Notes: generated by a model not told the origin, from the sequence alone. DNA of 32,000 nucleotides from Xanthomonas campestris pv. campestris str. ATCC 33913 (GCF_000007145.1 NC_003902.1:4106497-4138496); one strand, 5' to 3'. Shown: positions 10,148-20,057, numbered from the stretch's first letter. Made by a program: numbers and translations.

Positions 10148-11548
10148 TCACAACGCAGGAAAGTGCGGTGCGCTCGAGCAGGTCGGGATGCTGCCGGCAA
10201 GCTGCACGGTGCTGGTGGTGACATTGGTGCCGGTCGGCACGAGCTCGCTGCTGCTCAGCCCGATCCGCGCATTGCTGGCGGTGACGGCCTTGTTGCCTGT
10301 CGCAACATTGGCAAGCACCAGGTCCAGCGGTGTCTGCTCGTTATAGCCTTCCAGGATCCAGCCCTTGCCCTTGAGACCCGCATCGCCGGTGGTCCGCAAG
10401 CCATTGACGACAATCTGGCTGAAGGTGGGCGCGGTGCCGCTGCCGCCGCTGGAATAGAACGGGTTGATCACCAGCGGGCTGGTGACGCCGTACAGGCAGG
10501 TATTGCGATAGGTAATCAGACTGACCGGGCCGCCCTTGGCGATGCTGGTCTTGATGCGCAGACCGTTGTTGTCGGTGCTGCGGTTGCCGGCATCGTCGCT
10601 GGCGGTGATGGCAGTGGAATCGACCAACACATTGCTGACGCCGGACATCACCTCGCTGCCGATCGAGATGCCGTGCGTGCCGTAGCAACGATTGTTGCGC
10701 AAGGTGATGTTGCCGGACTTGGAGGCGATGGTCTTGATCGCCACGCAATCGTCGCCGCCCATCACATCGTTATCGAACACGGTTGCGTTGACCACGCTAT
10801 CCAGGTCCAGGCCATCGGTGTTGGGGCTGGTCGCTGGCGACTTCACCCGCGTGCCCCAGATGGTCAGGCCATCGACGATATGCGCGAAGAAATGGAAGTA
10901 CGCCGCATTGATCAGATTGACGTTGTAGAGCGTAAATGCGCTGGAATTCTGCACCTTGATCAGGTCCGGGCTGTTCTGCACCTGGTTGGCCTTCTTGGCG
11001 TTCTCGCCGAACTCCCACCACGTGGTGCTCTTGCCGAGCATGGTCAGGTCACCACGGCCATCGATGGTGCCCTGGCGCCCACCGATGCGCACACCCATCA
11101 CACCGGACCTGGTGCCCTTGACGCTGATCAACGGCAGGCATCCGCCACTCTTGGAACCGGCCGTGCCGCAGCCACTGCCGTAATCGGCGGGGTTACGCGA
11201 GCCGTACACGGTGACGCCCTGATCGACCACCAACGTCACGCCAGTAGGAATCGACAGCGGCCCGGTCAGGAACGCGTTGCCCGCGCCCGCCGTCAGCAGC
11301 ACGCTGCCATTCTTCCCCGCACACGCGGTCAGTGCGGCCTGGATGTTTTTGGTATCGGGCGGCGCACTTTCCAATGCCGCCGCGAACTGGCGCGCGCTAG
11401 CCGTGTGCTCGGCCTTTACCGCCTGGCAGGTCGCCGGAATACCAGGCTCGGAGACTGCACGACCATCGCCGGTTGCCTGGGTGATGGCGCTCGCCTGTGA
11501 GGCAAGCGAAAGACAAAGACCGCCGATGGCGGCAGCAAGCAGTTTCAT
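10148..11548 (-). CDS. pglA: Secreted GH28 endo-polygalacturonase
   Basis: Start at MKLLAAAIGGLCLSLASQASA (ATG = complement of 11546-11548; signal peptide). GH28 signature motifs are present: SPNTDGLDL (NTD), GGDDCVAIK (DD), GTHGISIGS (G/HG) and GLRIKT (RIK). A PIP-box promoter lies upstream. Confidence 0.9.
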   Translation of the reverse strand: MKLLAAAIGGLCLSLASQASAITQATGDGRAVSEPGIPATCQAVKAEHTASARQFAAALESAPPDTKNIQAALTACAGKNGSVLLTAGAGNAFLTGPLSIPTGVTLVVDQGVTVYGSRNPADYGSGCGTAGSKSGGCLPLISVKGTRSGVMGVRIGGRQGTIDGRGDLTMLGKSTTWWEFGENAKKANQVQNSPDLIKVQNSSAFTLYNVNLINAAYFHFFAHIVDGLTIWGTRVKSPATSPNTDGLDLDSVVNATVFDNDVMGGDDCVAIKTIASKSGNITLRNNRCYGTHGISIGSEVMSGVSNVLVDSTAITASDDAGNRSTDNNGLRIKTSIAKGGPVSLITYRNTCLYGVTSPLVINPFYSSGGSGTAPTFSQIVVNGLRTTGDAGLKGKGWILEGYNEQTPLDLVLANVATGNKAVTASNARIGLSSSELVPTGTNVTTSTVQLAGSIPTCSSAPHFPAL

Positions 11549-11629
11549 GACGTAGTCACCCGAAGAAGAAGAGACGCGTGCCGTTCGGGGGCGACGCAGC
11601 GCCCAGGGAACCAACACGGTGAATGGCGC

Positions 11630-11690
11630 ACTCTACAGCGCGTCGACCGGGGGCGATGGCAGCGCGCGAACCGGCTGCCGTGCAAACGAA
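11630..11690 (-). promoter_or_regulatory. PIP box (HrpX-type plant-inducible promoter) plus -10-like hexamer for pglA
   Basis: The minus strand reads TTCGT (11690-11686), then exactly 15 nt, then TTCGC (11670-11666). After 30 nt comes TAGAGT (11635-11630, fitting YANNNT). This matches the consensus TTCGB-N15-TTCGB-N30-32-YANNNT. It lies 118 nt upstream of the pglA ATG. Confidence 0.7.
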
Positions 11691-12475
11691 GCAGCATGCC
11701 ACCGCGCTTCCTTGTTGCTACCAAGTGCGCAGATCCACGTGGTCAGCAAGTTAGTGCGTGGCGTTACTTGGCAAGGAAACGATCCACTGCGGCTAGTTGC
11801 GGCGCATGCCCGGCTGAGCGGAACTTCCGCAAGGCATGCCGCCGACATTACCCTGCCTCGCAGAGGGCCATCCAACACAGGCGGCGCGTCGCTTCAAAGT
11901 AAGGTCAACCACCGCCATCACTGGCAGGCGCTTCTGACATCGCCTGCTGCTGAGAGCGCGCAGCAAGCGTCATCACCGGGCCCGTAGGCTCCTTGTCGAT
12001 CTCCTCGCGCTCGCGCTGGAACTGCACCATCTCCTGCGCCCGTTGCTGATCCATTGCCTCCGTTTTTTGCAAGGTTTCAGTCATGCCGGGCGATGGCGTA
12101 TTGAGCGCGGTTTCCGAATGGAATCCCAGCGTTTTGCCAAAGACAAAGGCCACATCATCTTGGATGGTTACTTTCCGGAGTTCATCCGCGCGCTCAATCC
12201 CCGATTCTTTGACGGCTTGAAGCACTTCGGCCGTTTTCTCATCAGATGTGCCCCTGGGGAGCTGTGCCTGGATGGCGGAGAACAATGCGTAATCCCGATG
12301 ATCAGAGGGAAACGCCTGCTGAGCGACATCTTGGGATGGCCTGATTTGCTCGACCCGATCCTCATCGTTCACGCCTGCGTTTGAACGCCCGCCAGTCCCA
12401 CCAAAGCCAGGCGATGACGTATAGGAGGACGACGCGCGCTCAGGCAAGACGATCTGTGCCGGCACTTCGCTCTGA

Positions 12476-12511
12476 GTTGGCGTTGGCGTTGGCGTTGGCG
12501 TTGGCGTTGGC
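12476..12511. repeat. Hexanucleotide SSR (GTTGGC)x6 encoding a (PT)6 linker
   Basis: Six perfect tandem copies were counted on the plus strand. They translate on the minus strand as PPTPTPTPTPTPTQ inside the effector pseudogene. A shorter relative (tggcgttggcgttggcg, ~13765-13785) encodes APTPTPQ. Confidence 0.9.
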
Positions 12512-13434
12512 GGCAATGTTGCCTGCATCGCTTCTTGCTGCTCTGCCTGCAATGGAACAGCCGATGGCGCATCGTTCTGTGGCGTGCCTACTCGGGCTTG
12601 CTGCTCGCTGCCCTGCTCCACCGGCCCATTTGCCGATGCCGGCGCTATGGGTTTCAAAGCTTCTCGGCGCGCATGTTGTGCCTGGGACAACGCTTCATCC
12701 AGCTCTTGTCCGGCAACGCCCGTTGCCGGCAAACCTTGGTCTTGCTGGAACTGTCTCACGGCATGTTCGGTCTCCGAACCGTAGTGCCCGTCTTGCGGCA
12801 CGGCCTGCCCGTTTGGACCACGCGCATCTACTTGCTGCAAGCGATATTGCAAGAACTCGACTTCTTGCCCCCGGTCGCCCAGGCGCAGCCCTTCCACTTC
12901 ATGCGATGAGCGCGGTGTTGCGGCAGCTGCCTGAGTAGGCGCTTGATTGGGGACGGTCGAAGCGGATGATGCTGATCCAAGGTTCGGCGCAGATGCGCCC
13001 GCCAAGGCTGGGCCCACTGCCTCTGCCCTCGGCTGGACTGCGCCGGCTGTCGGGGGTGCCCCAACCTCAGGTGCTTGGGTCTCTTGGGGTTCTCGTTGCG
13101 GGACAGGTTCGGGCTTCGGTTCGGCAGGCTTGGCGACCGGGCGCACGTCTTCCTGCAGAGACGCGTTGACGGATGTAGCCACCGCGACAGGAGCAGGCGT
13201 TGCCGCCTCCGCAGCAGCAGGCGCATCGGGTGTACGTGCAACGTCTCGATCTCGCTGCGCATCAATGGCCGCCTGAGGTGCTCGGGTTTCATCCACATGC
13301 GGGGCGGTAACCGTTGTCGCCGCAAAGCTTGCGGCTTGCTGCGCTTCTTGCGTAGGCACACCTTGCCGATTAGCCTCCCGCAACGCTTGCTCGTAAGCAT
13401 CGCGCTCTTGGGGCGACTGTGCGTCAATGCGTTG

Positions 13435-13450
13435 CTCCGGCGCTCCGGCG
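13435..13450. repeat. 8-bp perfect tandem duplication (ctccggcg x2; CGCCGGAG x2 on the coding strand) causing the effector frameshift
   Basis: The plus strand at 13435-13450 reads ctccggcgctccggcg. Both reading frames encode …GAPE across it. Deleting one copy fuses …SLRQEQPPSAGAPE to QRIDAQSPQERDAYEQALREANRQG… in frame. Confidence 0.9.
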
Positions 13451-15736
13451 CACCGGCCGAAGGCGGTTGCTCCTGCCGAAGTGACTGCACCTCGCTGAGT
13501 GCCTGATGGATATCGTCGGTGCTGGTCATTGCTGCAACACGCACCGCACCATCGGCGTCACGGCTCAGATGCTGGATGGGGCTGTACACCGAGTATTGCG
13601 CGGTCGTATCACGCTGCAACGCCAAAGAGCTGGTCGCGGCATCGATCCCGTTTGCCTCACGTGTCCGTTGCACCGCAAGCTGGATCGCGCCTGCGGTCTG
13701 GGCATTGGGCGCAACGCCATAGGCGGCATAGGCCGCTTCGGTATTGGCCTGATCTTGTTGCTGTGGCGTTGGCGTTGGCGCTTGCCTTGCCGGCATCTGT
13801 GCCAACGCCTGCCCGTGCTGCTCCAATGCCGGTTGCAAGCGTTCGCGCGTTGCATTGAGTTCTGACGGGACATTGCCTTCGGCAGCAACACCATCATGCC
13901 GCCACTGATCTTGCGTATCGCGCTGATACTGCTTGCCGTCCGAGGCTTGCAGTGAGTCTGGGTTCAAGGCTGCCTGCACGGCTGATGGCACGGGGCCAAA
14001 ATCGTCCCATCCATTGCGCTGATAGGCAGTCTGATAAGTCGCTGCAATTGCAGCTGGGCCACGGGCAATGTTGGCGTCCACCACCTGGGCTGCTTGTTGA
14101 TCCAACCCGGCACTGCGCTCGGGGCTTGCCGGATCAACCGTCCAGACGGGCCGCTCGTTCCTATCGACTTCGTCGGCGATCATCCGGGACCACTGGCCAC
14201 TTGCCGGATCATGCCGCCAATCCCGTGCGTAAAGATGCGCAGCATCTGCCTCACTGGATGGCTGCACATAGGGGTTACTGGGTTGCACCTTGCCAAGCGC
14301 CTGCTCGGTCGCTTCGCTACTGGCGTGATAGTTCAGCTCGCGCGCTTTTTCGGGCAGTGCGAACATGGCCTGCTTCTGCGGTGCATCGACGCTATCGTTG
14401 GGAAGATCGGCCTTTTCTTGGCGCAACCACTGGTTGCCATTGAACTCCCAGCTCACGCCCTGCTTGTCAGTTTGTGTATAGATCTGGCGGTTGTCCCAGA
14501 GCGTCACGGCCTTGTCGGCAGCAGCACTGAACAGATAACCATCGGCCACCACCAGCGCGACGGGCCCGGCGCCGGTTGTGCCAACCACGGCAGCGGCGGC
14601 GGTGCCTCCCGCCCAGCCGCCTATGCCTCGGGCACTAAAGTGCAGCGCTTCTGACCGCGCAGCGGTAAGGTTGTCTTGCGCCAACAGCGTGCCAACACGC
14701 TCTCCGGTTTGCGACGCATCGTAGGCAGTGGCGGCAACGCCCAAACCCGCAAGCCCTGCTGTCATCCCGGCGCGACGCAAGCCTGGGATCTCCGGCTCAG
14801 GCACAGGCACGCGTGCAGGCGGAGCCCCTGGCCGCACGAGTTCATCAATGGTGGCAATGCCTTCCAGCCGGCTGTTCACGCCGTCACTGACGTGTAGCTC
14901 GGCGTGCTCAGCAAGCACTTGCTCCTGAACGGCGGGGGCGGCGTTGGGGATGTCTTGCACATGCGCCGGTAGATCGCGGTGCCAATCGACCTGTTGTTGC
15001 CAGCTTTCGCGCAGTACTTGGGTGACCGCTGGATCCTTGAACCACGCATTGCGCGCCGCTTCCAGTGCCTGCCCGGGCGGACGTGCATCGGTGCGGCTAT
15101 CGTAAACCTCGGCACCCTGGCGGTTGAAGATGCGTACGGGCGCCGTGGTCTGGGCATGCACCGTGTCCAGGCTGATCGGCAGCCTGGTGTAGACGACCTC
15201 GCGATGACTTTCGGGCACGTAGCGGCCGTAGCCTTCCCGATCGAGCTGCTGAGAAAACCTGGAATCGACGCCATGCTCGCTTTCCAGCTTGTGCGCGGCC
15301 ATTGCACGCACCTCGACGTCATAGCCGCGCGATTGCAGATCCTTGATCAGTTCCGCGCTCCACTGGCCATTGCTGAGCGTGGTGTCGAAGATCAGGTTCT
15401 TCTTGCCTTCGATAGTGACTTGCAGCAGTTCATCGGCCCATTGGCTGGCATCGGAGTGGGTGTAGCCAGACCAGGTGTAGGGGTGGGCATTGCGCAGGGC
15501 GGACACTTCGGGGTGAGCGTTACGCAATTCATCCGGATCGATCAGGACGACATCCCTGCCTAGCTCGACGTCTGCAGCTCTTGCGAGACTTCCTTTTCCC
15601 GAGCCAGGTTGCCCAGCGAGGATGATCGCCTTGGGGTGTTCGAAGGACGTTTTTGTCTCCAGTGCGGCATCATCAAGAATCTTCTGCTCAAATAATCTGC
15701 GATGCTCGACATTATCGAGACGGGATTCCTTTTCGT

Positions 15737-16381
15737 TCATATCAAAGACTCCTTGTGCGTCTCGATGTAATTCCACAGCTGATCTAGATCCGACATTCCG
15801 CGATTTCTCGATCTTGCATGGCGGGTCAAACGTTCTTTTTCTTCAGCCATTTTTACGGCGTTAGCATCACCGCTAGCGTGCGCAAGATCGAGTTCCTCGC
15901 GGGCTTCGGAGATGAAAGACTCAAGCCTTCCTTCCAACGCCCAGATGGCTCCATCGAACGGAATCAACGGATTTGGCTTCCTGATGTAATCATCGAGAAC
16001 ATCCTGCAAGCGCTGAATCAACTCGGGATAGTCTCTCAGTAGCTCACGCAATTTCTGCGGCACAGGAGGCGCAGGCAAGCCGTTTTCAATGGAGGGAGGC
16101 ATGGGCTTCGACATGGCAGGATCTTTCCTCTTAGGCATGGGCACGCGCGGCGCAGTGTGCGCATTGTCATCCAGTGCAGGGACCGGCTGCACCGGCTGCA
16201 CCCACGGTGCCGGCTTGGGTTTGCGCTTGACATGCTCCAGCAAGCCGCCATGCGGCAGCGGGCCTAGCTCGCGCTGCGTGCGTTCATTGATCAGTTGCAA
16301 ATCGCGCAGCAGCTGTGCGGCACGCGTCTCGGCTAAGCGCTGCGCCAATGCGATGTAATGGGAGCCTGATGTATCGCTCAT
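15737..16381 (-). CDS. Hypothetical 214-aa cytoplasmic protein, candidate cognate immunity/antitoxin for the zeta-like toxin
   Basis: Has an ATG (complement of 16379-16381) with a GAAGGAAG SD. Its stop TGA overlaps the toxin ATG (ATGA at 15737-15740). No signal peptide or lipobox. A Pro-rich middle is followed by a helical-looking C-terminal half (PVPQKLRELLRDYPELIQRLQDVLDDY…ISEAREELD) shared with the 140-aa ORF upstream. No family recognised. Confidence 0.6.
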   Translation of the reverse strand: MSDTSGSHYIALAQRLAETRAAQLLRDLQLINERTQRELGPLPHGGLLEHVKRKPKPAPWVQPVQPVPALDDNAHTAPRVPMPKRKDPAMSKPMPPSIENGLPAPPVPQKLRELLRDYPELIQRLQDVLDDYIRKPNPLIPFDGAIWALEGRLESFISEAREELDLAHASGDANAVKMAEEKERLTRHARSRNRGMSDLDQLWNYIETHKESLI

Positions 16382-16503
16382 ATGGGCTTCCTTCTGCAGA
16401 TGCCGCTGGAGAATAACCGGCTTCAGTAAAATGGTGTCGCATGGCTAACATTGCGATATCCATTTTTTAATATTCTATTGTAAATGCGATCCATCAATGC
16501 CGA

Positions 16504-16926
16504 TCATTTTCCTCGTGAGACGAGGTATTTAACGACAGGAGAAAGATCGGAAAAATAGCCGCGGTATACTGGAAATGCTGAAAAATCCCTGAACTTTTTT
16601 TCAGCTAATTCGCAAGAAAAATCGATTTTTATCTGGTCAACTGCTGATTTAGAAAGCCTAACGTCTTTAGCTACAGCATCAAGTTCTTGCGATGCTTCAA
16701 TGTGAAATTTATTTAATTCAGCACAAACCATATCCATCAACCTTCTGTAAGCCGGGCCGTATTTCTCCCTCGAGAATTCGCCACCTGGCAATTTTTCCGC
16801 GAATTGATCAAAAGCATCTTGCAACCTCGATAAATATGTAGGATAACTTCTTAATATTTTGTATAACTCCAGTGGGATTGGGTAGCGTAAATCACGATCC
16901 AGAGGTTCGTTTTCATCGACTAGCAT
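16504..16926 (-). CDS. Hypothetical 140-aa protein, paralog of the C-terminal half of the 214-aa ORF (second immunity-like gene)
   Basis: Has an ATG (complement of 16924-16926) preceded by GGAAGGAG. It lies in the most AT-rich stretch of the window. The shared motif is PIPLELYKILRSYPTYLSRLQDAFDQF … IEASQELD, against PVPQKLRELLRDYPELIQRLQDVLDDY … SEAREELD in the 214-aa ORF. No signal peptide. Confidence 0.6.
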   Translation of the reverse strand: MLVDENEPLDRDLRYPIPLELYKILRSYPTYLSRLQDAFDQFAEKLPGGEFSREKYGPAYRRLMDMVCAELNKFHIEASQELDAVAKDVRLSKSAVDQIKIDFSCELAEKKFRDFSAFPVYRGYFSDLSPVVKYLVSRGK

Positions 16927-17013
16927 CTCAACACTCCTTCCACGTTTGCGTACCAGGCGCAGGAACTAACCGTCTCTCCATATCCCATAGCACTTTTTTA
17001 TAAAAATTAATTG

Positions 17014-18024
17014 TTACCATGCCGCCGTAGACATTAAGGCCTTAACTTCTGCTTTAGGTAACAGCCGCTTCGTGAAGTAAGCATCTTCGTAATACTTGAT
17101 CTTCTCGCAGAGCACCGGGCTTGGGATGCCTTCATAGAGGAAGACTTCCTTATCAAAACCCATCGCCTTCAACTCCTGCGGCAGCATCAAGGCGCGGCGC
17201 TGCTCGGTTTCTGAATAAGACACGCTGCTTTGCTTGCCACTGGTTTGCGACTTGTTCTTCTTGCGCACCGTGGTGTAGCCGAGCATGTCCGAGTAGTCGT
17301 TGGCGTCTTGCTGCTCGCGCGGGGCATAGACGATTTGCAAGGCGTGGTTGGTGATGATGGTGCGCGAGACATCCTTGCCATAGGTCGCGTCCAGCTGCGC
17401 CATGCTCTGGATGATCGGTAGCAAGCGAATGTTGTAGCCGGCCATGTAGCTCACCGCGCTTGCAATGATGTCGACCCGGCCGATGGACGTGAACTCGTCC
17501 ATCAGCAACAAACACTGGTGTTCGAGCACCGGGTTGTTCTGCGGCAGCTCTTTGGTGTTGAGGTTGATGAGCTGACTAAACAGCAAGTTGATCAACAGGC
17601 GGCTTTCGGCAAGCTTGTTCGGCTGGATGCCGATGTAGATGCTCATCTTCTTCTTGCGCACATCAGTCAGCAGGAAGTCGTTGTCGCTGGTTGACGCATC
17701 CAGGATCGGATTGATGAACTGGTTGAGCGGTTCCTTGAACGTGCCCATGATCGAGGCGAAGGTCTCTTCGGCTTGCGAGAGCAAATTGTCAAAGGCTGTC
17801 TTTGCGTCACGACCCAGGAAGTCGCGCTGCGAGAGCTTTTTGAGGTAGCCCTTCAAGTCGCTGCCATCTCCCGACGACACGCGATAGAGCATTCCAAGGG
17901 TTGGAAACATCCAGGTGTCTTTGGGGTGCTCGCGCTTGATCTGATCATCGAGGCTATCGAACAGATAGAGCGTAAACGCCATGAAGGCGTTGCGGGCCTG
18001 GCTCACCCAGAACTTTTGGGCGTC
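17014..18024 (-). pseudogene. virD4: virD4/traG-type T4SS coupling protein, C-terminal fragment (IS-disrupted)
   Basis: Part of track ORF 17014..18225. From codon GAC at 18024 it reads DAQKFWVSQARNAFMAFTLYLF … LLLMDEFTSIGRVD (Walker B-like) … NIRLLPIIQSMAQL … MLPQELKAMG, typical of the TraG/VirD4 C-terminal two thirds. Residues encoded by 18025-18225 are read-through from the IS. Confidence 0.85.
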
Positions 18025-18056
18025 CGACGTCCCCCCGCCCTGAGTAGCGGCCTGGT

Positions 18057-18908
18057 TTAGAGTCCGGGGTTGATGATATCGGTGTTTGCCAGATGTTGGG
18101 CATAAGCAGCCGGGGTCATGCCGCCGATTGCTTTCTTGGGTCGGTCCTCGTTGTATTCGCGTCGCCAGCGTTCGATTTCGGTGCGCGCGTGCAGTAACGT
18201 CGGGAACCAGTGCTCGTTGAGGCATTCGTCGCGCAGTCGGCCGTTGAAGGATTCGACGTAGGCGTTCTGGTTCGGTTTGCCTGGCTGGATGAGCCGTAGT
18301 TGCACATTACGGGCATGCGCCCAGGCGACCATCGCCTTACCGCAAAACTCCTTGCCGTTGTCAGTGCGGATCACCTTCGGCAAACCGCGACTGTGCGCCA
18401 GTCGGTCCAGCACGCGCGTCACCCCGTGCCCGGAGATCGCGCGCTCCACTTCGATGGCGACCACTTCGTGGGTTGCATCGTCCACGATCACCAGACACTT
18501 GATCACCCGGCCTTCGGCGGTGCGGTCGAACACAAAGTCCATCGACCACACCTGGTTGGCCTGCGATGGCCGCAGCAGCGGTTGACGCTCGCCTATTGGG
18601 ACCTTCTTGCGCTTGCGGCGGCGCACTTGCAGCTGCTGCTCGCGGTACAACCGTTCCACACGCTTGTAGTTCACGATGCGCCCTTCTTGCCGCAATTTGA
18701 GATAGATCATTCCCACGCCATAGCGGCGATGGCGATGTGCCAACGCACAGATGCGTTCGCGCAGTTCGCCATTGCGATCTTCGCGCGGGCAATACCGCAG
18801 TGCACTGGCGCTCATGCCGATCACTGCCAACGCACGACGCTCGCTGGCACCACGCCCGATCCATTCGCGCACCAGCGTCCGACGCGCCGGTGCGCTTACC
18901 ACTTTTTT
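18057..18908 (-). CDS. IS3-family transposase OrfB (DDE integrase core), expressed as OrfAB by -1 frameshift
   Basis: The slippery heptamer A AAA AAG is the complement of 18902-18908, and the OrfB frame is -1 relative to OrfA there. The product reads KKVVSAPARRTL… WSMDFVFD … IRTDNGKEF … YVESFNGRLRDECLN (D, D, E region). The first ~58 codons of track ORF 18057..19082 merely overlap orfA. Confidence 0.88.
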   Translation of the reverse strand, partial: KKVVSAPARRTLVREWIGRGASERRALAVIGMSASALRYCPREDRNGELRERICALAHRHRRYGVGMIYLKLRQEGRIVNYKRVERLYREQQLQVRRRKRKKVPIGERQPLLRPSQANQVWSMDFVFDRTAEGRVIKCLVIVDDATHEVVAIEVERAISGHGVTRVLDRLAHSRGLPKVIRTDNGKEFCGKAMVAWAHARNVQLRLIQPGKPNQNAYVESFNGRLRDECLNEHWFPTLLHARTEIERWRREYNEDRPKKAIGGMTPAAYAQHLANTDIINPGL

Positions 18909-19165
18909 CGCAGTGCATCCTTGATCAGGTCGTTCTCGAACAGCTGCTCGGCCAGCAACTTCTTCAGCCGCGCGTTCTCGGACTCTAGGTCCTTGAGCCG
19001 CTTGGCATCGGGCACGCTCATCCCACCGAACTTGCTGCGCCACAGGTAGTACGAGGCCTCGCTGAAGCCATGCCGCCGGCACAGGTCCTTGATGGCGACG
19101 CCGCTTTCGGCTTCGCGCAGAAAGCCGATGACCTGCTCGTCAGTAAAACGTTTCTTCACGTCCAA
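18896..19165 (-). CDS. IS3-family transposase OrfA (HTH)
   Basis: 89 aa: MDVKKRFTDEQVIGFLREAESGVAIKDLCRRHGFSEASYYLWRSKFGGMSVPDAKRLKDLESENARLKKLLAEQ, the classic IS3/IS407-group OrfA with a leucine zipper. It ends …CGA AAA AAG TGG TAA. Confidence 0.9.
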   Translation of the reverse strand: MDVKKRFTDEQVIGFLREAESGVAIKDLCRRHGFSEASYYLWRSKFGGMSVPDAKRLKDLESENARLKKLLAEQLFENDLIKDALRKKW

Positions 19166-19227
19166 TCTCCTCGGGGTAGGGAATTGGACTCCAAACTGAG
19201 GCGCTACTCAAAATTGGGGGGACGTCG

Positions 19228-19921
19228 CGTCAGAGCCATCCGGGTAGAGCATCGCCGCAACACTCATCAGATCCGACACGCGAAACGCCGGGTCCGGTGA
19301 GATATAGCTGAGCGGGTTCCAACGGTGGGTGCGCCCGTCTTCCGCGAACGGGTTAAACAAAAAGACTTCCTGGCCTTGGCTCTTGCGCCAACCCGAGGTC
19401 AGGTCGAAATTCTCCTGCTTGATGTCCAGAACGACCACCGATCCTTGGTAGTCGAGCAAATTGGGAATGACGATGCCCACGCCCTTGCCCGAACGCGTGG
19501 GCGCGGCCAGGATCACAAACTGCTGACCAGGCAAGCGCACCACCTTGCCGCCGTGCTTGCCAACCACAATGCCGGTTGGCGACGGTTTGAGCATGTCCTT
19601 CTTGGCCAGATCACTGCCGGAGGCAAAGCGCGCGTCGCCATGCAATGCGGCCGCCTTTGGCTTGAACAGCGGGATCAGCAGCGCGATCCAGGCCAGCAGC
19701 GGCACGCCGAAGCCTATGGCACCAGCCAGCTTGATCTTGCTGGCATAGGGAGCGAACTGCGGGAGGTCGAGCGCTTTGACGTAAGACCAGTAAGTGTCGA
19801 CGCTGAGCGGCGCAGCCACCTTCAACAGCATCAAGATCAACTGACCGGAGAAGAAAATTCCCGCGATTGCTGCGAGCAGCAACAGGCCGAATGCAGCGAC
19901 TATCCTGAGATTACTGCTCAC
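19228..19921 (-). pseudogene. virD4: virD4/traG-type T4SS coupling protein, N-terminal fragment (IS-disrupted)
   Basis: GTG start at 19921 with AAAGGAA upstream. It has two N-terminal TM segments (IVAAFGLLLLAAIAGIFF; AIGFGVPLLAWIALLIPLF), the Walker A ILAAPTRSGKGVGIVIPNLL, and then VVVLDIKQENF. The sequence ends …MLYPDGSDA at the IS junction. The track ORF runs 7 more codons into the IS, to 19208. Deleting the IS plus one TSD copy restores a 566-aa ORF. Confidence 0.88.
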
Positions 19922-20057
19922 CGTGCGATTCCTTTCATCGGTCCTTGACTCGTCTACCAGCGTAAGCCGTCTTCCAGATTACAGGGTCAGCACCCGCTGA
20001 CTGTCAGGAAGCTCTACCAGCCATGCAAGATTTTCTGCCAGGTCTGCCTTGCAAGGC

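Follow-up and report, generated by a model that had tools for sequence, protein, structure and literature searches.

An AT-rich immunity-like gene between virD4 and a candidate zeta-toxin effector gene in Xanthomonas campestris pv. campestris

Introduction

What is the role of a small protein encoded in unusually AT-rich DNA between virD4 and the gene of a zeta-type toxin, and why do two related genes stand upstream of one toxin? The locus lies in a 32,000-nt stretch of Xanthomonas campestris pv. campestris str. ATCC 33913 (NC_003902.1:4106497-4138496), here called the window. A preliminary description of this DNA took the 140-aa ORF in the AT-rich patch (ORF140) for a diverged paralog of the immunity-like domain of its 214-aa neighbor (ORF214). 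It likened the pair to an immunity-gene array built by separate acquisitions, in which ORF140 would be an orphan immunity gene against a related toxin from another lineage.

Zeta domains are UDP-GlcNAc kinase-type toxins that poison cell-wall synthesis. Bacteria-killing T4SSs have lately been recognized as a weapon of Xanthomonas, Stenotrophomonas and Lysobacter. Arrays of orphan immunity genes are known from the T6SS of Vibrio cholerae, the acquired immunity islands of Bacteroidales, cdiA-CT/cdiI orphan modules and Rhs systems.

Organization of the virD4-toxin block

The gene order on the minus strand is mreC, mreD, mrdA, rodA (~20.3-25.3 kb), virD4, ORF140, ORF214, toxin, GH28, mltB, rlpA and dacC, with mreB further upstream according to an alignment to the annotated locus of Xanthomonas sp. 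LMC-A-07 (L001). The features discussed below are as follows.

17014..19921, strand -: virD4 coupling-protein gene, split by an insertion sequence (IS) into 19208-19921 and 17014-18225; Pfam T4SS-DNA_transf on both halves
~18028-19226: IS3-family element in virD4, ~1.2 kb; orfA 18896-19165, orfB 18057-19082; HTH_Tnp_1 and rve
16927..17013, no strand assigned: virD4-ORF140 spacer, GC 0.425, containing TTTTTATAAAAA at 16995-17006
16934..16941, strand -: Shine-Dalgarno-like GGAAGGAG, read from the sequence, 7 nt upstream of the ORF140 ATG
16504..16926, strand -: ORF140, 140 aa, acidic N-terminus, predicted all-helical; deep-branching paralog of the ORF214 immunity-like domain
16382..16503, no strand assigned: ORF140-ORF214 spacer, 122 nt, GC 0.426
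15737..16381, strand -: ORF214, putative cognate immunity protein (X-Tfi-like), its stop overlapping the toxin start (ATGA)
11905..15740, strand -: Zeta_toxin effector with an N-terminal Zeta_toxin domain (Pfam, 3.4e-60), PG_binding_1 (5e-14) and a Gln-rich C-terminal tail

The IS junctions were placed relative to the intact virD4 of LMC-A-07; in other X. campestris strains virD4 is intact (566 aa) or carries different IS insertions. The zeta domain of the toxin matches the zeta protein of 1GVN (2.3e-20) and PezT (1e-11) in the PDB. In the present strain an 8-bp tandem duplication (GCGCCGGA) near 13432-13443 shifts the reading frame of the toxin gene and parts the toxin domain from both PG_binding_1 and the tail at the C-terminus. 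This split form (970 + 311 aa) is common to about half of the sampled X. campestris loci, and an intact toxin of 1271-1279 aa is encoded in other strains of the species.

A search for an XVIPCD in the toxin C-terminus gave no match in Pfam and no sequence match in the PDB, with single sequences or profiles. The C-terminal ~100 aa and the Gln-rich tail are conserved among zeta effectors of Xanthomonas, Lysobacter, Marilutibacter and Vulcaniibacterium. Zeta_toxin has already been catalogued among X-Tfe toxin domains, and X-Tfi genes normally lie just upstream of their effectors (PMC6536674). On these features the neighboring toxin, which adjoins virD4, is a type IV effector candidate (X-Tfe-like).

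The block virD4-ORF140-ORF214-toxin-GH28 (10148-20000) interrupts a cluster of cell-wall genes, with rodA on one side and mltB-rlpA-dacC on the other. It has no virB genes as neighbors, in keeping with the fragmented X-T4SS locus reported for X. campestris pv. campestris (PMC6536674).

In the window virD4 (IS) and the toxin gene (frameshift) are both broken, yet ORF140 and ORF214 have stayed intact. Intact immunity-like genes beside a broken virD4 and toxin would fit a defensive value that is independent of the resident weapon.

Composition of the AT-rich patch

The preliminary description named 16.4-17.0 kb as the most AT-rich part of the window, and windowed GC values agree, reaching their minimum there (0.36-0.41 vs. 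~0.65). GC is 0.407 at 16401-16800 and 0.450 at 16801-17200, with 0.50-0.73 over the remaining window; the lowest 300-nt value (0.363) is at 16451. The comparison of GC3 with the flanking genes, which had been proposed as a check, gave 0.34 for ORF140, 0.63 for ORF214, 0.59-0.68 for the toxin gene and 0.76-0.78 for virD4, against a mean of 0.845±0.05 for ten core genes of the window. Overall GC is 0.397 in ORF140 vs. 0.563 in ORF214, so that two tandem paralogs upstream of a single Zeta_toxin effector do indeed stand far apart in base composition. The spacer between them is of a length typical for gaps between immunity-array copies at other loci.

The perfect 12-nt palindrome TTTTTATAAAAA that had been reported in the virD4-ORF140 spacer exists, at 16995-17006 rather than at 16983-16994. 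When the 632-nt AT-rich patch is shuffled with its dinucleotides preserved, ~20% of the shuffles contain a perfect palindrome of 12 nt, and the orthologous spacer of LMC-A-07 lacks TTTTTATAAAAA; given a local-null probability of ~0.2 and no conservation in that ortholog, we rejected the palindrome as a regulatory site. A longer perfect palindrome of 14 nt (AAAAATCGATTTTT, 16617-16630) falls within the ORF140 coding sequence and is probably a by-product of AT richness. A simple scan of 15600-17200, which includes the virD4-ORF140 spacer, found no promoter or terminator sites, and an Rfam scan of 15500-17300 gave no match.

ORF214 and its immunity-like family

AlphaFold2 (AF2) models residues 105-214 of ORF214 confidently (pLDDT >90) as a helical bundle, preceded by a helix and a disordered linker (residues 1-100). 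The N-terminal extension (16094-16381, residues 1-95) comprises a helix at residues 5-39 and a disordered Pro/Lys-rich linker; extensions of this type are limited to Xanthomonas and a few Lysobacterales, most family members being 111-130 aa long and lacking it.

The C-terminal domain belongs to a family found in Xanthomonas, Stenotrophomonas, Lysobacter, Rhodanobacter, Solilutibacter, Vulcaniibacterium and many MAGs (Lysobacterales), and its ~115 aa carry the motifs PxPxxLxxxLxxYP...LQ, AIWxLEG and FxxEAxxEL and a C-terminal Tyr. The family had no match in Pfam or NCBIfam or, by profile search, among PDB sequences. When the pLDDT>90 domain of ORF214 was compared with the PDB by Foldseek, generic helical bundles were returned (best E 0.36, no match with E<0.1), and epsilon and PezA were absent among the best 50 matches listed. 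An epsilon-like fold for ORF214 is not supported, as Foldseek gave generic bundles only (E>0.3).

At 51 Lysobacterales loci, a family gene lies directly upstream of a Zeta_toxin effector gene, typically 2-50 nt away. The invariant adjacency and coupling, together with the epsilon/zeta and X-Tfi precedents, suggest that ORF214 would act as the cognate cytoplasmic inhibitor, binding and blocking the resident zeta kinase domain. By the same analysis the family as a whole appears to be an uncharacterized group of putative immunity proteins against zeta-type kinases, with no relationship to epsilon or PezA as far as searches show, and its definition is one outcome of this work.

Many of these loci hold more than one family gene. 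Tandem copies (2-4, with gaps of ~80-230 nt) occur in ~19 of the ~45 surveyed loci that carry a zeta-toxin match. Identity among copies within arrays is 40-81% (whole family: median 45%, minimum 28%), and the GC content of every copy is somewhat below that of its own genome. Zeta-toxin pieces are interleaved with the copies in 7 of the ~19 arrays (L010, L021, L028, L029, L030, L032 and L037). The pieces are mostly 5' fragments of ~80 codons upstream of one full-length zeta effector (e.g., L029 1-3019, L030 5971-8164); L037 is an exception, with a second full-length zeta domain and thus two full modules. The interleaving of immunity arrays with toxin 5' fragments suggests N-terminal toxin-cassette switching in X-T4SS effectors. 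We found no description of orphan X-Tfi arrays or of toxin-fragment arrays in the literature searched.

Homology of ORF140 to the ORF214 C-terminal domain

The core of ORF140 had been aligned by eye with the C-terminal half of ORF214, and this alignment holds under statistical tests of the kind then proposed. BLASTP finds 43% identity over 30 aa (E 8e-7), and none of 5000 shuffles reached the observed Smith-Waterman score (Gumbel p ~1.6e-6); the similarity is therefore statistically real. Profile alignment with hhalign (probability 96.5%, E 7.5e-10) spans 67 columns, including the later EASQELD/EAREELD match that had also been pointed out. With larger profiles (3 ORF140-type sequences vs. 81 copies of the ORF214-C-type domain) the probability rises to 98.6% (E 1.4e-15), and the 105 aligned columns run from residue 14 to residue 137 of ORF140 and take in nearly the whole domain; an HMM of the family matches ORF140 at 1.8e-6. 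Judged from these alignments, ORF140 is a very distant but genuine full-length homolog of the ORF214 C-terminal domain.

The distance is considerable, with merely 16-28% identity between ORF140-type proteins and each of the 81 family copies. The N-terminal PxPxxLxxxLxxYP...LQ motif, FxxEAxxEL and the C-terminal Tyr are kept in ORF140, and the invariant W147/E150 of AIWxLEG is replaced in all three ORF140-type proteins. ORF140 itself had no match in Pfam, NCBIfam or PDB sequences, and no DNA-binding domain was detected there. Its AF2 model is of low confidence (pLDDT 62) and contains five helices in the same order as in the ORF214 C-domain; at that confidence the model does not allow a fold search. 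Read by eye, the protein has neither a signal peptide nor a lipobox. This agrees with a target in the cytoplasm, which is what one would expect for zeta kinases and cytosolic X-Tfis (PMC6536674).

Conservation and distribution of ORF140

Homologs of ORF140 are encoded on several hundred X. campestris contigs from many strains and pathovars (pv. campestris including B100, raphani, papavericola), where they are always labelled 'hypothetical protein'. By far most of these contigs carry an intact copy. A few strains have truncated or disrupted alleles (variants of 74-131 aa), and at one X. campestris locus (L060) an IS lies between ORF140 and ORF214. Outside the species, LMC-A-07 has an ortholog with 67% identity at the corresponding position, and an exhaustive HMMER search recovered a full-length ORF140-type protein with ~30% identity from one metagenomic lineage (P0054/P0083). 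The homolog search and inspection of genomic contexts proposed earlier thus yielded orthologs at two depths with the same gene order. Against the LMC-A-07 ortholog, dN/dS is 0.17 at dS ~1.15, and the strong Shine-Dalgarno sequence that had been noted before the 140-aa ORF stands at its start (GGAAGGAG). ORF140 is a real, selectively maintained gene.

ORF140-type genes are nevertheless confined to very few organisms. Deep searches of 1.84 billion representatives by HMMER and of 5.8 billion clusters by profile, along with a scan of metagenome contigs, yielded the metagenomic lineage as the only new one, so that the type is present in just three lineages among ~15 billion proteins and 241 million metagenome records. 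The order ORF140-type gene, ORF214-C-type gene and zeta toxin recurs both in LMC-A-07 and in the unrelated metagenomic lineage (L005/L067), where both junctions of the three-gene module are ATGA stop/start overlaps. The ORF140-type gene is always distal, one or two genes from the toxin and never abutting it (window, L001, L005), within the same cluster and in the same orientation. No cognate toxin of the ORF140 type was found in the three lineages.

In the metagenomic lineage (L067 109-342, L005 426-2370) the module stands beside a divergent gene with a faint HTH_17 match that reads as an AlpA/excisionase-type regulator. There are hints that this module rides on a mobile element.

The site in Xanthomonas is a variable island. 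Between the window and LMC-A-07 the flanks are 94-100% identical, whereas the interior, which starts at the 3' end of virD4 and closes with the zeta domain (~17130-14800), is 47-80% identical or unalignable. At the protein level, identity is 67% for ORF140, 62% for the zeta domain and 36% for the proximal immunity protein. X. phaseoli lacks ORF140 at the rodA-virD4 site, where an ORF214-like pseudogene begins at the virD4 stop. X. bromi has an ORF214-like gene and an intact-looking zeta effector without ORF140, and the nearest relatives of the ORF214-zeta cassette of the window (X. bromi, X. axonopodis and X. cucurbitae) all lack an ORF140-type gene. The absence of ORF140 beside the closest relatives of the toxin indicates that it is dispensable for that toxin type.

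Proposed role of ORF140 and alternative readings

Our preferred reading, to which we give a probability of roughly 0.5, is that ORF140 is an extra, non-cognate member of the superfamily, kept because it would neutralize a different zeta-type variant that competitors deliver. Between virD4 and the toxin there would be a small immunity island with ORF140 at its distal end, and cassette turnover drawing on a gene pool of lower GC probably introduced the gene or left it in place. The most likely role of its product is that of an additional ('orphan') immunity protein in the cytoplasm, as far as its sequence tells. On paper ORF140 looks as such genes do, having no adjacent toxin, being absent in X. 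phaseoli and showing a GC3 of 0.34, with its protective effect putative. It is ORF214, and not ORF140, that lies directly upstream of, and coupled to, the Zeta_toxin gene, and similarity to epsilon or PezA was seen for neither protein in Pfam or PDB profile searches, nor in the Foldseek search with the ORF214 C-domain.

The homology of ORF140, the purifying selection on it, its genomic arrangement, the mosaicism of the site and the presence/absence polymorphism are direct observations. We infer from them that ORF140 would bind a toxin, with a specificity of that binding, and would give protection. Whether the protection is directed at the toxin of another lineage is a further step, taken here conditionally because in X. 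citri the main reported task of X-Tfis is protection from self (cis) intoxication (PMC10933484); in that species a separate DUF4189 factor blocks kin attack (PMC10933484; bioRxiv 10.64898/2026.05.09.723464). The notion of an array built by separate acquisitions stands in part. The common tandem arrays, the different composition of ORF140 and its absence in X. phaseoli are consistent with assembly of the array through acquisition and turnover of cassettes, but ORF140 is far more diverged than the copies in such arrays.

This divergence (16-28% identity vs. 40-81% for ordinary array members), along with the loss of AIWxLEG, counts against an orphan role, and so do the ATGA couplings from the ORF140-type gene through the proximal immunity gene to the toxin in L005, which look like an integrated operon. 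The lack of a cognate toxin in the three lineages, the truncated alleles and the low-confidence model of ORF140 are further points on that side.

The operon-like arrangement leads to a second reading, unlikely in our judgment, in which the ORF140-type protein is a stable accessory of a three-gene module, i.e., a second immunity subunit, a chaperone or adaptor to VirD4, or an omega-like regulator. Gene order is identical in X. campestris, LMC-A-07 and the unrelated metagenomic lineage; the clade is old (~30% identity between lineages) and under purifying selection, the AIWxLEG loss suggests a changed function, and between the window and LMC-A-07 the identity of ORF140 tracks that of the zeta domain and not that of the proximal immunity protein. 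This tracking rests on three taxa, however, and is confounded by organism relatedness. An accessory needed by the module is also hard to reconcile with the closest relatives of the cassette (the three species named above and X. phaseoli), which do without an ORF140-type gene, or with the occurrence of the type in three lineages only among all records searched, and ORF140 has no DNA-binding domain or other family match. The strictest form of this idea, a tripartite zeta module in which the ORF140-type protein is an obligatory third partner (co-inhibitor, secretion adaptor or autoregulator) kept since before the split between Xanthomonas and the L005 lineage, seems improbable to us.

ORF140 could alternatively be a relic, the immunity gene of an ancestral toxin-domain variant since displaced, which would now be evolving neutrally and decaying little by little within AT-rich DNA under xenogeneic silencing. 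Its distal position in a turnover-prone island would suit this, as would the shortened variants in some X. campestris, the IS beside the gene in L060, the failure of the scan of 15600-17200 to find a promoter-like site and the decay of the entire locus in the present strain. We regard the relic as doubtful: a dN/dS of 0.17 at this dS speaks against it, most contigs by a wide margin carry the gene intact, its strong Shine-Dalgarno sequence is kept, and its composition is unameliorated though both Xanthomonas alleles are old. A spurious ORF in AT-rich intergenic DNA, which the extreme composition, the empty Pfam and NCBIfam searches and the undetected promoter might suggest and which the preliminary description would have accepted had ORF140 lacked homologs and shown no expression, appears essentially excluded by the conservation pattern, with orthologs at 67% and ~30% identity keeping the frame over their full length, low dN/dS and profile homology to a widespread family (E 1.4e-15).

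Comparison with known systems

The arrangement is closest to the X-Tfe/X-Tfi pairs (Souza 2015; Sgro 2019, PMC6536674), in which the immunity gene likewise stands directly upstream of a large effector gene adjoining virD4 and is probably co-transcribed with it. Zeta_toxin is among the catalogued effector domains, and the lack of a lipoprotein signal on a cytosolic immunity protein agrees with a target in the cytosol (PMC6536674). The immunity family here differs in having no Pfam, NCBIfam or PDB relative, being apparently uncharacterized as far as searches show, and in contributing two paralogous genes for one effector.

As in epsilon/zeta and PezA/PezT, a small helical protein is encoded immediately upstream of a clear Zeta_toxin homolog, with overlapping stop and start. 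In contrast to those systems, ORF214 and ORF140 have no detected sequence similarity to epsilon or PezA, with no fold match for ORF214, and the toxin has the architecture of a secreted effector of ~1270 aa, unlike the plasmid-stability module of epsilon/zeta.

The orphan arrays of T6SS, CDI and Rhs systems resemble this family's loci in their tandem, diverged immunity paralogs beside one full-length toxin, the toxin fragments between copies, the atypical composition and the presence or absence from strain to strain. Delivery here is by a T4SS, however, and ORF140 is far more diverged than typical orphan copies. Unlike in CDI and Rhs, the toxin domain here is N-terminal and the immunity gene upstream, so that orphans pile up upstream, in mirror image.

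Orphan immunity genes are a known kind; what would be new is an example in an X-T4SS context and in an uncharacterized family of putative zeta-kinase immunity proteins. The maintained extra paralog, intact in a strain with a broken virD4 and toxin gene, and the multi-copy arrays are genomic evidence that X-Tfi-like proteins may also serve in defense against other lineages. If this is true, the arrays imply selection for trans-protection against non-kin, in contrast to the cis-only role reported for the X-Tfis of X. citri.

One further gene was seen at such loci. In LMC-A-07, an ORF of 191 aa (L001 10537-11112), without a family match in Pfam or NCBIfam, lies between the ORF140-like and the proximal immunity genes. 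A homolog with 50% identity in Marilutibacter maris (L041 6717-7157) likewise lies between two immunity-family genes, and the 191-aa ORF may be another passenger of immunity islands.
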